DNA of 64,000 bases, taken from NCBI GenBank assembly GCA_050260175.1, contig JBLNBS010000156.1:6098-70097 (forward strand). The letters run 5' to 3'. Both the position numbers and the translations under genes were made by a program. The DNA comes from Patescibacteria group bacterium (GTDB lineage Bacteria > Bacillota > UBA4882 > JAAYXC01). The notes beneath the pieces are model-generated. The model saw only the letters and a list, made by a program, of their open reading frames with translations. It was not told the DNA's origin and made no database searches. Of this stretch, positions 4,891-63,749 are shown piece after piece; the first letter of the stretch is position 1; each line of letters begins with the position of its first letter.

Positions 4891-4980
4891 CCCCCGGGTT
4901 GAAACCCGGGGAAGCTTTGGTACATCCGTGTACGTCGCTTACCCTTTAGCCCATCCTGGGCGGGGGCGGCTTTGGTACAT
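4891..4980 (+). repeat. Copy of modular REP family (modules H+G+partial G)
   Basis: CCCCCGGGTTGAAACCCGGGG hairpin followed by AGCTTTGGTACATCCGTGTACGTCGC...GGGCGGCTTTGGTACAT. Near-identical to the units at 16241, 17127 and 17939. Confidence 0.85.
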
Positions 4981-5019
4981 AGAATCGCATGAAATCGGTA
5001 TGTTGCCTGATCTGCATAA

Positions 5020-5175
5020 TTGCTTTACGTGATTAGAAATGATTTAACAAGATTAACATGATTTCATGATTTACACAGATTATTTGTCTATTAGTTTATC
5101 TTTATTAATGATTTTAATCTTAAATCTTGTTAATCCCATTAATCATGTAAATCATGTGATGTCGTTTCCTGTTTT
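5020..5175 (+). repeat. AT-rich island with phased TAATC/GATTA repeats and a GTTAATCC core
   Basis: ...TTTTAATCTTAAATCTTGTTAATCCCATTAATCATGTAAATCATGTG... in an otherwise GC-rich context. Lies between gspE and gspF. Confidence 0.7.
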
Positions 5176-5259
5176 ATGTGTTTATCAGTCCAAGAACGGT
5201 TTTTCACAGCGCTTCTAGTATGTGTAATACTAGTTTGTACCAGGGGTGGTCTTTGCTCC

Positions 5260-6465
5260 ATGGCGGACTTTACTTACCAGGCGGCGGACGCGGGCGGCCG
5301 CACCACGAGCGGTCGCATCAACGCGCCGTCGCGGCACGAGGCCATGGACGCCCTCCGCGCCAAGGGGCTTATTCCGTTACGTCTGGCCGAAGCCGCGGCC
5401 CGAGAGACGCGGCGCGATTCCGCGGGCAAGCCCAAAAGCCGGGATGTGCTCGCCTTTACCCAGCAGCTGGCGACCCTGGTGGGAGCGGGCCTGCAGCTGG
5501 ACCGGGCGCTCGCGATCATGGCGGGGCTCGCGCGCGGGGACCGGATGGGCGCCACGCTCGCCGCCATCCGCCGCGACGTCCAGGAAGGGGTCGCGTTTTC
5601 CACTGCGCTGGAGCAGCATCCGCGGCTTTTCAGCCGGATCTACGTCAACATGGTGCGCGCCGGCGAGGCGGGCGGCGTGCTGCCCGTCGTCCTGCGGCGG
5701 CTGGCCCAGACCATCGAGGAGGAACGCGAACTCCGTTCCTTCGTTATGGGCGCCCTGCTCTATCCGGCGGTTGTGGCCGCGGTCAGTTTTCTCGCCGCCT
5801 GCGTGCTGCTGCTCGTCGTCGTCCCCTCCTTCGAACGGATTTTTGCCAAGATTAACCAGGATCTCCCCGCCATCACCCGTCTGACCGTGGCGGTCAGCCA
5901 CGGCCTCAAGGCATACGGCCTCTGGATCGCCGGGGGCCTAGCCGCCGCGGCCCTCGCGGCCTGGCGGGCCGTCCGGCAGCCGGCGGGCAGGGCGGTCCTG
6001 GACCGCGTTTACCTGCGTTTTCCTTACTTCGGCGTCCTCTACCTCAAGGTGTTGACCGTAAGGTTGACGCGGACCATGGCCATGCTGGTGGGAGCCGGGG
6101 TCTCCGTGCTGCAGACCTTTGCCGTGGTCAAGGAGACGGTGGGCAACAGTGTCGTGGCCGCCGCCCTGGCCCGCGCCGGGCAGGAGATCAAGGAGGGCGG
6201 CGGCGTCGCCAGGCGGCTCGAGGCCCAGCGCATCCTCCCCCCCCTGGCCGTGCAGATGATCGCCGTGGGCGAGGAGACCGGGGAACTGGCCTCCATGCTC
6301 GACCAGGTCGCCAAGGGCTACGACGCAGAGGTCCGCCTGGCGGTGAGGAACCTCCTTTCCCTGATGGAACCGGTTTTGATCCTCTGCCTGACGGCGATGA
6401 CGCTCCTCATCGCCCTCTCGATCCTTATCCCCCTGGTGAGCATGAATACGGGCGGTGTTTTTTAG
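5260..6465 (+). CDS. gspF: Type II secretion inner-membrane platform protein GspF
   Basis: N-terminus MADFTYQAADAGGRTTSGRINAPSRHEAMDALRAKGLIPLRL is typical of GspF/PilC. Two GspF-type repeats (LATLVGAGLQLDRAL, MLVGAGVSVLQTF). Hydrophobic TM segments. Confidence 0.92.
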   Translation: MADFTYQAADAGGRTTSGRINAPSRHEAMDALRAKGLIPLRLAEAAARETRRDSAGKPKSRDVLAFTQQLATLVGAGLQLDRALAIMAGLARGDRMGATLAAIRRDVQEGVAFSTALEQHPRLFSRIYVNMVRAGEAGGVLPVVLRRLAQTIEEERELRSFVMGALLYPAVVAAVSFLAACVLLLVVVPSFERIFAKINQDLPAITRLTVAVSHGLKAYGLWIAGGLAAAALAAWRAVRQPAGRAVLDRVYLRFPYFGVLYLKVLTVRLTRTMAMLVGAGVSVLQTFAVVKETVGNSVVAAALARAGQEIKEGGGVARRLEAQRILPPLAVQMIAVGEETGELASMLDQVAKGYDAEVRLAVRNLLSLMEPVLILCLTAMTLLIALSILIPLVSMNTGGVF

Positions 6466-12076: not shown

Positions 12077-12213
12077 CGGCTTTCTTTCGGATCAAGTTTA
12101 GAGAGGTTTGACAACCCAAAAAAACTGTTCTCGCGCGGAGACGCGGATTACCATGAGTTCCAGTAAGATAAAATCCTGTTAATCCTGTCCATTTCTATGC
12201 GGGAGGCACAAAA

Positions 12214-16240: not shown

Positions 16241-16478
16241 TTCCCCGGGCTGAACCCCGGGGCGGCTTTGGTACGTCCTTGTACGTCGCTCGCCCTTTAG
16301 CCCTTCCTGGGCGGGGGCGGCTTTGGTACGTCCTTGTACGTCGCCGCTTTTATGCCCATCCTGGGCGGAGCTAATCTCACCAACCCATCCATGGGTGATC
16401 CGGCCCATCCGTTCCCAGGGCCATTCATGGCCCTTCGTGAGATTAGCGCCGGTTTTTAGGCCGGCGTCGACCCATAAC
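16241..16478 (+). repeat. REP array (modules H, G, G, L, T)
   Basis: H = CCCCGGGCTGAACCCCGGGG. G = CGGCTTTGGTACGTCCTTGTACGTCGC (twice). L = GCTAATCTCACCAACCCATCCATGGG...CAGGGCCATTCATGGCCCTTCGTGAGATTAGC (long hairpin with a nested hairpin). T = GCGCCGGTTTTTAGGCCGGCGTC. Confidence 0.9.
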
Positions 16479-16794
16479 ATCCTGCCCAAATATCGGAAAA
16501 TTCGCCCGCTCGCTCCCCGACTCCTGCCAATCACCTGCCATTTGATGACAATGACAAACGAGACCGCCATATGCTGACGGCCTTCCAAAAAACAGTCATG
16601 AGTCGCGGGTCAGTCCCCAGTCACAGTCTCCGGTCCCCAGTCAAAAGCCTAAAAGTCGAAAGTCATAAAGCCCAAAGCCTAGATTCAACTAGGTGCCCCA
16701 TTGGCAAGCCGGAATCAGCGACCAACATTCCCGACTTGAAAACATCATCGGCGAGTCCTTATTATGTTTTAAGGCCCGCAAAACACAATAAGGA

Positions 16795-16960
16795 TTATCG
16801 TCCTTGATTTTGGTCCCTAAAGACCTGTAAGTATTGGTCAAAGACAAACAGCCGATTGCGCCGCCAGCCGGTGATCTCCTTCAGAGTCCCCATCTCAACC
16901 AGCGTGGCCACCAATTGATTGGCCGTGACATACCGCGATTCCTCATTTCGACTTCCTGTC
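16795..16960 (-). pseudogene. Remnant of a Fic-family-like protein C-terminus (winged-helix tail)
   Basis: Minus-strand frame reads ...EESRYVTANQLVATLVEMGTLKEITGWRRNRLFVFDQYLQVFRDQNQGR*. There is no upstream body and the frame is cut off by the REP array at about 16965. Lower-GC segment. Confidence 0.35.
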
Positions 16961-16965
16961 TGAAT

Positions 16966-17472
16966 CCCGGGGCTAATCTCACGAACCCATCCATGGGTGA
17001 TCCGATCTATCCGGTCTCTTAGTCCATCCGGCCCCAGGGCCGTTCACGGCCCTTCGTGAGATTAGCGCCGGTCTTTAGGCCGGCGTCGACCCATAACGCC
17101 GTTGGCCCAAAACCATCCCACATCTCTCCCCCCGGGTTGAAACCCGGGGCGGCTTTGGTACGTCCGTGTACGTCGCCGCTTTTATGCCCATCCTGGGCGG
17201 AGCTAATCTCACGAACCCATCCATGGATGGATCCGTTCCATCCGTTCCCAGGGCCGTTCACGGCCCTTCGTAAGATTAGCGCCGGTCTTTAGGCCGGCGT
17301 CAGCCAAAAATGCCGTTAGCCCAAAAACCATCCCACATCCCCCCCGGGTTGAAACCCGGGGCTAATCTCACGAACCCATCCATGGGTGATCCGGTTCATC
17401 CGATCTCAGGGTTCCATTCCCAGGGCCGTTCACGGCCCTCCGTAAGATTAGCGCCGGTCTTTAGGCCGGCGT
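16966..17472 (+). repeat. Three tandem, variably composed REP units (L+T; H+G+L+T; H+L+T)
   Basis: Units start near 16966, 17127 and 17340. The spacers themselves are repeated (GCCGTTGGCCCAAAACCATCCCACATC). The last T module contains the transposase stop codon. Confidence 0.9.
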
Positions 17473-17895
17473 CGATTCCCCGTCATCCCCGGTAATCTCC
17501 AACTCCTCCCTCAAAGTCCCCTTCCGATGGTGCATTTCCTGGTCAAGAACGTAATCCGTCACGTCTTGTTGGTCGCCGGGCGAGACGGTGAAAAGGCCGT
17601 AGCCGCTCTGCCAGGCGAATCCGCCGTTCGGCTCGGCCACATGGTTGACCCAGTGCGAGCTGGCGCCTTTCAGGTTGCCGATAAACTCAGCCACGGCGAG
17701 CCGCGGCGGGATGAAGACCAAACAATGAACGTGATTCGCTATGCCTCCCACGGCATAGGGGATGCCGTCCATCTGCCGGATCTTGGTTTTCATGTAATCA
17801 TGCAGCGCGCCCCGGTAGTGTTCGCCGATCAGCTTCTCCCGCATCTTTGTGCTCCAGACCACGTGGTACAATAGGCGGCAGAATTGCTTGGGCAC
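17461..17895 (-). CDS. IS200/IS605-family Y1 (HUH) transposase, RAYT-like
   Basis: YHVVWSTKMREKLI N-terminal motif. HUH motif HVHCLV. C-terminal catalytic Tyr motif YVLDQEMHH. 144 aa. Confidence 0.9.
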   Translation of the reverse strand: MPKQFCRLLYHVVWSTKMREKLIGEHYRGALHDYMKTKIRQMDGIPYAVGGIANHVHCLVFIPPRLAVAEFIGNLKGASSHWVNHVAEPNGGFAWQSGYGLFTVSPGDQQDVTDYVLDQEMHHRKGTLREELEITGDDGESTPA

Positions 17896-17938
17896 GATCG
17901 ATACCCCTCTCCCCCGCCTTCCATGGATTTATTCCATT

Positions 17939-18110
17939 TCCCCGGGTTGAAACCCGGGGCGGCTTTGGTACGTCCGTGTACGTCGCTCGCCCTTTAGCCC
18001 TTCCTGGGCGGGGGCGGCTTTGGTACGTCCGTGTACGTCGCCGCTTTTATGCCCATCCTGGGCGGGGCTAATCTCACCAACCCATCCATAGGCCGGCGTC
18101 AGCCCATAAC
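17939..18110 (+). repeat. REP array (H, G, G, internally deleted L, T)
   Basis: Near-identical to 16241-16478 except for a deletion inside module L (CCATCCAT|AGGCCGGCGTC). Confidence 0.9.
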
Positions 18111-27260: not shown

Positions 27261-27440
27261 TTGCGGCGCGCGTGCGCCGGTGGTATAATCTGCATGTCGG
27301 CGCCAAAGGACGGTATCCAAAAACGGGAACCGTACCGTATTGGGTGTTGTGTTCAGTGACAGGATTCCGCTTGGATCCCTTGGACCGAGACGGAGCAGAG
27401 GGTAGGCCGCGCCTTCCGCACGTGTCGGAGGGCTTTTTTG
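27261..27440 (+). promoter_or_regulatory. Candidate promoter plus a roughly 145-nt terminated leader or small RNA upstream of the pan operon
   Basis: TTGCGG, 17 nt, then extended -10 TGGTATAAT (27281-27289). Hairpin GCCTTCCG-CACGTGT-CGGAGGGC (27411-27433) followed by TTTTTTGTTT. Confidence 0.45.
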
Positions 27441-29443: not shown

Positions 29444-29573
29444 CCGTTGGCAGAAAAGCAGTTATTACAACATCTATGCCTGGTTTATTGGAATCTGTGT
29501 TAATCCGTGTAATCTGTGGTTAAAAACCGGCTCTCGGTTTCGTTTCCTGTCTCTTGAAAAGGGGCGACTAAGC

Positions 29574-49744: not shown

Positions 49745-50120
49745 GACAAAAGCCTCCTGCCGATGCGCCGGGGTCGCCGGCGCGATTACGCTAATAAAAA
49801 GGATTATTATGGCCGTCGATCCAGCCGTTCGTCAAGGGGTCCGTCCCAGAGTTTGTGCTCCATTGGCGTTAATCGGGTTTGTCGTACAAACTCCAAGGTG
49901 AATGATTCGCGCCGCGGGGAGCCGATTCCTGCCCTGGAAAACGCGGATCGTGCCGACCGGCCGCCGCGTCCCCGCAAGGCAGGGGGTTTGCCGCGGATTC
50001 GCGCGGCCGCAGCGGGCGGCGCCGGCCGCAGGAATGAACTGGGGACGGGCCGCGGCAGGAATAGCGGCCACGGGGGCGAATGATGGGGAAGGTTCACCAA
50101 ACTGCGGCATATTGCGGGGT

Positions 50121-51818: not shown

Positions 51819-51947
51819 ACCTGGCTGGAACCGGTGCACGCAGATTACGCAGATCTTAATCTGCGTTAATCCCCATAATCTACGTTCCGTTACCTTTTCA
51901 CGCTCTTTAGTAACCTGGCATCGAAGGGCGGGAAGCCGGTAAGCTTT

Positions 51948-62887: not shown

Positions 62888-63749
62888 GTTAATCCCGCGC
62901 CTCAAGCGCCTCGGCGCCGTGGCGCTAGACAACCCCTTGCTCACGGCCGCGGCCCTGCTCGTGGCCTGTCTGGCCCTGTTGCCCTTTTCAGGCGCGGGGC
63001 CGCGGCCTGTATGGGCACGCGCCTGGCGGCTCACCCTGCCGTCCGCCAGGTGGGCCGCGGCCGGGCCGGCCTTTGGCCGGGATGACCTGGCGGGTTTGCG
63101 GCTTCCCCGGCCCGCGGCGCGGAATCATGCGGACACCGGCGCGGATCGCGCGGCTTTGGCTCCGCCGGGCGACCCGGGCCTCATCGCCGGCATCTTTGCC
63201 GAGGTCAGGGAGACCGAGGACTTGCAGCGCCGGGCTGCCCTGGGCGACTGGAGCGGCTATCTCAGGGCGCTCACCGCCCGGCGCCTGAGCGAGGCGCGGT
63301 CATGGTGGGAGGAGCGGCTGCGGGATCTGGCCATCGAGTTCGGCCAGGCCAACGATAGCCTGCTCGCGGCCTTTGCGGCCCAGGCCAGGCAGGAATCGCT
63401 GCCCATGGTCAGCGCCCTGCAGATCGAGATCACGCTCTGCGACGATCCCGAGTACCGGCCGGTGCTCGAGGAAAAGCTGAGACGGGTCTTTAGCGATATG
63501 GAGGACCGCATCGCCATGCGCCGCGAGGAACTCTCCCGGCAGTGCGCCGCGGAACTGGAGAACCTGCGGGAACAGGCCAGTAAAGCCCTGGACGATCTCG
63601 CCGCGCAACTCCTGGAGATGGAGCGCCGGTCCCTGGATGAATTCCGCGCCGTGCAGGAAAGCGCCTACGCCGAGTGGTCCCGGACACTCGCGGAAGCTGA
63701 GGCGTCGGCACTGGCTGCCTGGGGAGAATTAGCCGATGATGAGAGATGA
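62868..63749 (+). CDS. Membrane-anchored coiled-coil protein (OmpH-like?)
   Basis: TM LLTAAALLVACLALLPF, then an Arg/Glu/Ala-rich helical region. Start uncertain (62829, 62850 or 62868). Confidence 0.45.
   Translation: MSRPRSELIPRLKRLGAVALDNPLLTAAALLVACLALLPFSGAGPRPVWARAWRLTLPSARWAAAGPAFGRDDLAGLRLPRPAARNHADTGADRAALAPPGDPGLIAGIFAEVRETEDLQRRAALGDWSGYLRALTARRLSEARSWWEERLRDLAIEFGQANDSLLAAFAAQARQESLPMVSALQIEITLCDDPEYRPVLEEKLRRVFSDMEDRIAMRREELSRQCAAELENLREQASKALDDLAAQLLEMERRSLDEFRAVQESAYAEWSRTLAEAEASALAAWGELADDER

Follow-up and report, generated by a model that had tools for sequence, protein, structure and literature searches.

A phased AT-rich intergenic repeat of a Patescibacteria group genome: very probably a miniature element with IS1182-like ends around a palindromic core

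The Repeat at the gspE–gspF Junction

In the genome assembly GCA_050260175.1 of a Patescibacteria group bacterium (GTDB lineage Bacillota; UBA4882), a stretch of 64,000 nucleotides from contig JBLNBS010000156.1 (positions 6,098 to 70,097; termed "the window" below, and the source of all coordinates given without a contig name) carries the 8-mer GTTAATCC at five sites, 5129, 12178, 29499, 51865 and 62888, each on the plus strand, and a near match GTTAATCG at 49868. All six places had been located exactly by a first-pass annotation, which described an oriented motif within AT-rich islands of regularly spaced TAATC, always upstream of plus-strand genes, and proposed a promoter class, an array of binding sites for a global regulator or another module of the repetitive extragenic palindromic (REP) family as its explanation. 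Here we propose that these islands are very probably neither promoters nor regulator sites, and that they represent pieces of a family of about 100 miniature inverted-repeat transposable elements (MITEs) whose ends resemble those of the insertion sequence (IS) IS1182.

One copy of this family lies in the spacer between gspE and gspF (Table 1). Positions 5020–5175 are 70–88% A+T and hold six GATT in the left half and five AATC in the right half, thus forming a large imperfect palindrome. The copy has lost its left end, by truncation or replacement, to a GC-rich REP unit, and REP units of this kind also surround an IS200-type Y1 transposase gene at 17461-17895 (REP region 16241-18110); the REP unit and the MITE at 4891-5218 are nested insertions of two unrelated repeat systems. 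With both repeats the gspE–gspF junction measures 380 nt here, compared with 16 nt in genome G002 and overlapping genes in genome G001, two members of the same taxonomic family, and we suggest that MITE copy and REP unit would have been inserted into a normally tight junction. At 5051-5058 the left arm of the copy reads AGATTAAC, a G>A change which removes the minus-strand 8-mer, and this is one reason why the sites of the window look one-stranded.

Table 1. Repeat features of the window. Sites away from the gspE–gspF junction were scored by local alignment to the family and compared with shuffled sequences.
Feature	Coordinates	Strand	Basis
GC-rich REP hairpin unit, a separate repeat family; adjoins and truncates the MITE	4891..4980	+	sequence
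Copy of the ~315-bp MITE ("A-family")	4958..5218	+	nhmmer E=5e-73; model positions 50-311
Remnant of the 71-nt nested mini-hairpin (AATC orientation)	4981..5028	+	alignments; the module sets the 315-bp apart from the 244-bp variant
Left arm, six GATT-type units at 9-10 nt spacing (reverse complement of AATC)	5029..5082	-	sequence, spacing
AT-rich central loop	5083..5113	.	sequence, predicted fold
Right arm, five AATC units at 7-9 nt spacing, with GTTAATCC at 5129-5136	5114..5160	+	sequence
Right terminal inverted repeat GGTTTTTCACAGCGCTT with -35-like TTCACA facing gspF	5198..5214	+	consensus of the inverted repeats; matches IS1182-like ends
CTAG, right-side target tetranucleotide (YTAR)	5215..5218	.	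flank comparison
19-nt arm fragment AAAATCCTGTTAATCCTGT, 8-mer at 12178	12170..12188	+	score 33 vs shuffled maximum 31
Possible degenerate arm fragment GAATCTGTGTTAATCCGTGTAATCTGT in the panB–panC spacer, 8-mer at 29499	29491..29517	+	borderline; score 27, shuffled 95th percentile 24, maximum 33
Solo terminal module GTTAATCCCCATAATCTACGTTCCGTTACC-TTTTCAC..CTCTTTAG, 8-mer at 51865	51835..51915	+	score 54 vs shuffled maximum 24

A Dispersed Family with Transposon Ends

The 8-mer is over-represented at both scales. Five copies in the window compare with an average of 0.61 and at most 3 in 100 dinucleotide-preserving shuffles, and 147 copies in the genome (3.17 Mb in 174 contigs) compare with about 22–26 expected from Markov models. 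The G+C content, guessed beforehand at about 70%, is 66.8% in the window and 64.3% in the genome. According to rough gene calls from a self-trained dicodon model (2,753 genes, 83% coding), 133 of the 147 copies are intergenic. The strict orientation that was claimed for the motif disappears at the scale of the genome, where 74 copies lie on the plus and 73 on the minus strand, and where 58 intergenic copies face a gene start and 67 a gene end, with distances to gene starts running from 19 to 646 nt without a mode. About 48 of the 58 predicted genes of the window are themselves on the plus strand, which makes a position upstream of a plus-strand gene nearly automatic. The oriented, promoter-like pattern is therefore an accident of this window.

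What remains is a genuine enrichment, and a single dispersed repeat family accounts for it: 120 of the 147 copies fall within the approximately 102 loci of this family, while the other 27 occur at about the frequency expected from third- and fifth-order Markov models (12 vs about 10 in coding and 15 vs 12–16 in intergenic sequence). In other words, the genome-wide frequency lies above expectation overall and at the level of composition outside of the repeat. Most of the 147 sequence contexts are of two recurring types, which proved to be the two arms of one element, on opposite strands and 80 bp apart.

When 85 anchored copies were aligned, the resulting consensus was about 315 bp long, and a search of the genome by nhmmer with the hidden Markov model of the family found 102 non-overlapping loci, spread over many contigs; 35 of these are near full length. 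Copies are 92–98% identical to the consensus (BLAST) and measure about 230–315 bp, with size classes of about 227–244 and 300–315 bp. The element is AT-rich and palindromic, and has no coding frame apparent by inspection, as opposed to a formal open reading frame (ORF) scan. It is bounded by 15-nt terminal inverted repeats (TIRs), AAGCG(G/C)TGTGAAAAA, which read AAGCGGTGTGAAAAAGG at one end and CCGTTTTTCACAGCGCTT at the other end of full-length copies. Such copies start with (Y)TA(R) directly followed by AAGCGGTGTGAAAAAGGTACCG, and end with CGGTTTTTCACAGCGCTT directly followed by (Y)TA(R); the flanking tetramers are YTAR in 26 of 29 copies on one side and 25 of 29 on the other. The two flanks of a copy are identical in 17 of the 29 pairs, where permuting the partners gives 7.5 ± 2.0 (P about 1e-4), which indicates a 4-bp target-site duplication (TSD).

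The surroundings of the copies are those of a mobile element as well. Among the spacers holding copies, 66 are tandem, 14 convergent and only 3 divergent, where 10–19 divergent ones would be expected, and the element is oriented along with its flanking genes 31 times and opposite to them 35 times. This pattern of insertion sites is as expected of selfish DNA under purifying selection. Contigs of soil metagenomes stop at the element, and their summed depth, about 6 in the flanks, reaches several hundred within it. Much of the fragmentation of the assembly is explained in the same manner, because the elements sit at many contig ends.

A Probable IS1182-Like Partner in the Same Genome

A search with DDE_Tnp_1 (PF01609) returned, above the cut-off, a DDE transposase of 441 aa encoded at C45:51-1373 (contigs are denoted C). 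Among NCBIfam models it matches IS1182 (NF033551) best, at 250.3 bits for a cut-off of 270, and the IS5 models score lower. Directly after the stop codon of this gene comes the right end of the element, ...CGGGTTTTTCACAACGCTT, followed by CTAA. The left end has the form CTAA followed by AAGCGTTGTGAAAAAG..., and is supplied by C78, which shares 121 nt with the start of C45 (in reverse orientation) and reads CTAA followed by AAGCGTTGTGAAAAAGTCCCG; the IS thus spans C78:1-160 and C45:1-1413. The result is an autonomous IS of about 1.45 kb, single in the genome, with a CTAA duplication and with ends AAGCGTTGTGAAAAA that are 14/15 identical to those of the MITE. At this locus the IS stands head to tail with a small MITE and an AATC MITE, and the three have YTAR boundaries in common.

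At the level of sequence, both the ends and the target duplication match between MITE and IS. We infer that the C45 transposase carries out the transposition of the MITE: as an IS1182/IS5-type DDE enzyme it would recognize the shared ends AAGCGNTGTGAAAAA, move the MITE in trans and duplicate the 4-bp YTAR target. Another place considered for an autonomous element, between the TIR pairs at C66:34102-35708 and on C170, was rejected as it contains ordinary genes only.

The same kind of ends, AAGCGGTGTGAAAAA, is also used by a GC-rich MITE family of about 210 bp (C9:494-688, C37:10430-10623, C126:5439-5632) and by several smaller families. Their cores are unrelated to that of the AATC family and rich in hairpins, with REP units often inserted in them. 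Outside the AATC family there are 72 end-like matches altogether, a few of them chance matches within genes.

A Palindromic Core Found in Many Phyla

The phasing of TAATC noticed in the window is genuine, and in the family the spacing is 9 or 10 nt: between AATC/GATT tetramers of the same orientation it is 9 nt in 397 cases and 10 nt in 156, over a background that is far flatter and peaks only slightly at 9. This phasing is produced in the core of the element, where a 9-nt unit, ACAGGATTW (reverse complement WAATCCTGT), is repeated in two inverted arrays. Along the consensus the order is left end, 71-nt mini-hairpin, GATT arm of about seven units, AT-rich loop, AATC arm of five units and right end. 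A 244-bp variant has no 71-nt mini-hairpin, and another variant is without exactly one 9-nt unit.

To what extent is this core confined to the genome under study? In 40 relatives searched by BLAST, substantial lengths of the element were matched only in G002, the same-family genome. G002 has, at locus L102, a copy 92% identical to the MITE of this genome, located on a 4,966-bp contig of G002 (C158, JBLNCE010000158.1) whose record is labelled "Bacteroidota bacterium". G002 is placed in the family of our genome, with housekeeping proteins only about 72% identical, so that either the contig may be assigned to the wrong bin or the element may have been transferred recently. In another family of the same class, the genomes match only positions 132-175 of the consensus, ACAGGATTAACATGATTTTCAGGATTTACACGGATT, a core of 43 nt occurring many times per genome. 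The element of that family is about 200–250 bp long, with different flanks and a right arm that carries a variable count of AAATCCTGT units. A strict 25-nt pattern, which proved to be over-strict, found no match in 21 relatives nor in this genome itself.

We scanned across phyla, with one genome per species, for the pattern GGATTAAC N1-12 GGATTTAYA N0-2 GGATT. At least 117 stretches from a dozen or more phyla matched, several genomes having multiple copies, where a rough estimate under uniform composition gives about 20 chance hits over the whole scan. By their record titles, the matches listed include Verrucomicrobiota, Kiritimatiellia, Lentisphaerota, Planctomycetota, Armatimonadota, Chloroflexota, Acidobacteriota, Beta- and Gammaproteobacteria, Desulfobacterota, Bacillota, Bacteroidota and cyanobacteria. 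Organisms in culture that carry the arms include Pelotomaculum propionicicum MGP, Thiobaca trueperi DSM 13587, Caldilinea aerophila, Thioalkalivibrio sulfidiphilus and Flavihumibacter soli. Since a 9-nt period equals three codons, coding repeats can match the arm pattern too, and one listed locus is indeed a clear false positive, a collagen-like Gly-X-Y coding repeat (GGA TTA ACA GGA TTT ACA...) of Fructobacillus broussonetiae (L075; NZ_JAAMFK010000003.1, 5427-5450).

The general form of the module is TTTTA joined to GACAGGATTAACAGGATTTACAGGATT, a loop of 12–120 nt, and AATCCTGTAAATCCTGTTAATCCTGTC joined to TAAAA. Its unit is strongly conserved, A(.87) C(.93) A(.92) G(.91) G A T T W, and the 9-nt period is kept in 228 of 283 spacings. 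Each arm has 2–6 units, and over all loci the loops range from 12 to 583 nt, clustered below 200, with six at 381–449 and one at 583. Phage collections gave no arm matches and plasmid collections a few, unannotated ones. In Rfam, the element of the window, the elements of the relatives and 15 cross-phylum loci had no relevant match, the only hits being a pan motif in the window and tRNAs elsewhere; likewise, no description of the arm module was found in Rfam or in the searchable literature. In the reading proposed here, the palindromic module is much older and more widely spread than the MITE that carries it. The MITE family is new and the kind of element ordinary; its core is what is unusual.

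Hairpins with AATC arms also occur without IS ends, in tandem arrays at C62:2850-3420 and C126:3150-3950 and at the loci L025 and L053 of genome G027. The units of these arrays are 140–205 bp long, 3–4 per array, and each bears AATC arms. It seems from such arrays that the hairpin module multiplies by tandem duplication too.

Association with GxxExxY Genes

Examination of the seven long loops showed that five hold a gene of the GxxExxY family (TIGR04256/PF13366, a PD-(D/E)XK-like nuclease; E about 1e-39 to 1e-41 for TIGR04256), which can face either way. Loci where arms bracket such a gene include L125 and L141, from Muproteobacteria and Verrucomicrobiota. In the remaining loci the arms enclose a small signal-peptide protein of SAF/CpaB-like type (L048, from a metagenome-assembled genome, MAG, of Kiritimatiellae) and a 99-aa ORF without a family match, which has the look of a RelE/ParE-type toxin, unconfirmed (L063, from a Kiritimatiellia MAG). 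An all-against-all comparison of 1,953 neighboring ORFs left GxxExxY as the only plausible recurrent neighbor, at 7 loci, and revealed no recurrent transposase. The link is a loose one, as only 2 of the 5 GxxExxY genes found in three arm-bearing genomes lie between arms. In the genome under study we found no GxxExxY gene, and a role of GxxExxY as the mobilizer is ruled out here. In this genome the hairpin module has very probably been caught between IS ends and multiplied as a passenger.

A tentative reading, which we hold to be possible and short of probable, is that the ACAGGATTW arrays are the recognition arms of an undescribed, multi-phylum hairpin element whose complete form carries a GxxExxY nuclease, and that in this genome a gene-less hairpin of that kind was captured between IS1182-type ends and amplified about 100-fold by a DDE transposase, in a host without GxxExxY. 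If true, this would be a second tier of parasitism, and it would explain how gene-less copies can spread without the nuclease. The TIR, the TSD and a known transposase would also provide a handle on a class of elements for which movement has not yet been seen.

Weighing the Alternatives

Several observations weigh against reading the islands as IS1182-type MITEs. Transposition of the MITE is inferred from sequence. The soil-metagenome contigs, which break at the repeat, contain no empty alleles; a precise empty site was not recovered from the relatives, which are too diverged, and in the AT-rich ones the orthologous locus that was chosen is itself repeat-rich and gave no clean answer. The partner transposase is found in a single assembled copy, and its score stays just below the curated IS1182 cut-off (250 vs 270 bits). 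The window holds four GTTAATCC outside the family where about 0.5 would be expected from the 27 such copies genome-wide; on this excess, at least two of them are degenerate fragments of the element and not chance. Within the genome, the conservation of AATC tetramers does not significantly exceed that of the intervening spacers (0.92 vs 0.90, P=0.10), an outcome expected after a recent burst. Finally, the extreme conservation of the 9-nt unit across phyla could reflect a trans-acting protein that matters here too.

The alternative that survives best would add to the MITE and not replace it, namely that the palindrome also acts as RNA, where a co-transcribed long hairpin would be processed by RNase III and uncouple or stabilize the flanking cistrons. 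Such processing of hairpins takes place in Correia elements and in the intervening sequences of 23S rRNA. For both strands of the consensus, a fold into nested long hairpins is predicted (dG -93 and -86 kcal/mol, z about -5.8), and copies are located within operon junctions, at gspE–gspF and possibly panB–panC. Arms are also slightly more complementary to their own partner than to the partner of another element (own higher in 37 of 61, P=0.02), a modest effect. Against this, any inverted repeat folds, and the truncated copy of the window is predicted to fold weakly (z -2.5 and -1.7). The variable ninth position (W) is mirrored between the arms in 0 of 11 simple 3+3-unit elements, hence left uncompensated, and Rfam offers no matching family. 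With covariation this weak and W never mirrored, selection for a perfect stem is not supported, and we consider an additional role as RNA to be unlikely.

Less likely again is that the phased units form an operator array for a nucleoid-associated protein or global regulator of the host which controls the downstream genes. The unit lends itself to this thought: eight of its nine positions are conserved across phyla, it is arranged in tandem arrays of 2–6 like the sites of cooperative binders, and the failure of the arms to mirror each other at W would fit a unit-wise recognition better than a perfect hairpin. What speaks against host operators is that orientation and distance bear no relation to gene starts, that divergent spacers are depleted, and that the copies bear TIRs and target duplications with the 8-mer at background frequency off the family; in addition, the 9-nt period is off the helical repeat. 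The regulator proposed in the first-pass annotation fails on the same outcomes. That said, eight conserved positions and a free ninth seem to fit unit-wise protein recognition somewhat better than a perfect stem, and each 9-nt unit could be a protein-binding site; this would then be a property of the mobile module and not of host promoters.

The third proposal of that annotation, a dispersed repeat module, was right as to a repeat family and wrong as to membership in the REPs. It is very improbable that the element is a REP-family module moved by the IS200-type, RAYT-like Y1 transposase at 17461-17895, even though both repeats are intergenic, a REP unit adjoins the copy of the window and REP units sit within other MITEs with the same TIRs. 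TIRs of 15 nt and a 4-bp duplication are hallmarks of DDE enzymes, Y1/HUH enzymes make neither, and the genome contains a DDE IS with matching ends; the sequence that the REP unit shares with the A family is limited to a trivial AATC in "TAATCTCAC". A promoter class for an alternative sigma factor, to which the AT-richness, the position upstream of several window genes and one sigma-70-like hybrid site over the right end might point, is barely conceivable given elements that face either way and often lie between convergent genes, with the 8-mer on both strands of a single element, scattered distances to gene starts, few divergent spacers and an 8-mer at composition level elsewhere.

The hybrid site just mentioned is found at 5203-5231 and consists of TTCACA in the right end of the MITE and TG-AATACT in the flank, 30 nt upstream of gspF. 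It is a consensus match only, and the suggestion that the two together supply a hybrid promoter for gspF is speculative. A palindrome, CTAGTAT-GTGTA-ATACTAG, follows right after the MITE end (5215-5235) and overlaps the possible -10 region of gspF.

Comparison with Known Elements

The Correia elements (NEMIS) of Neisseria, RUP, ERIC/IRU and Nezha are all IS-derived MITEs. The present family shares with Correia/NEMIS a small non-coding body, TIRs, a short duplication of the target and some 100 copies dispersed between genes, as well as size variants due to indels, insertion at operon junctions, a -35-like sequence in the ends and the potential to form hairpins. It differs from Correia by IS1182/IS5-type ends and by a 4-bp YTAR duplication in place of TA, and moreover its core is not the deleted interior of an IS but a separately evolving, phased 9-nt palindrome which exists alone in many phyla. 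The parent is like members of IS1182/IS5 (NF033551, NF033581, PF01609) in having about 1.45 kb, one DDE_Tnp_1 gene, 15-nt inverted ends and a 4-bp CTAA duplication, and unlike IS1182 in the score of its transposase (250 bits, below the cut-off of 270); its class is given here by profile score.

REP, BIME and REPIN sequences with their RAYT are likewise abundant intergenic palindromes, and a Y1 gene with GC-rich units is present in the window, nested with MITEs; whereas REPs lack both TIRs and TSDs and rely on HUH Y1 enzymes for their movement, the AATC element possesses TIR, TSD and a DDE partner. Ribbon-helix-helix operators, such as the metboxes of MetJ and the heptads of the omega repressor, are built of tandem short units, and resemble the arms in their contiguous units of 7–9 nt and their direct and inverted arrays. 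The likeness is purely formal.

A different parallel is offered by the Ssn GIY-YIG nucleases and their NTS repeats, in which small nuclease genes are flanked by repeats (Chenal et al., 2025, PMC11893778). As in Ssn/NTS, a short repeat occurs here in many gene-less copies and brackets a small nuclease gene in some loci (GxxExxY, five loci). Unlike Ssn/NTS, our genome has no GxxExxY, its copies spread with a DDE transposase, and cleavage of the arms by GxxExxY is only putative.

For annotation, the approximately 100 AT-rich islands between genes are best masked as members of one MITE family instead of being annotated as promoters or regulator sites. Operons that look essential (gspE–gspF and possibly panB–panC) appear to tolerate insertions of several hundred nucleotides, which raises the question of read-through or of promoters borne by the element. 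Beyond this genome, the core provides a tie to a near-identical hairpin module of 9-nt units in a dozen or more phyla, and here that module is tied to a concrete mechanism of mobilization.

Other Sites in the Window

The 8-mers outside the gspE–gspF junction are of unequal kind (Table 1). Each of the sites had been said to lie within a phased run, which holds for 5129, 29499 and 51865 and partly for 12178; those at 62888 and 49868 are isolated and cannot be told from chance occurrences. The fragment AAAATCCTGTTAATCCTGT is the canonical end of an arm and occurs in other phyla as well. The pan motif of Rfam noted above (RF01749, 51 bits) lies at 27307-27397 on the plus strand, upstream of the pantothenate genes.

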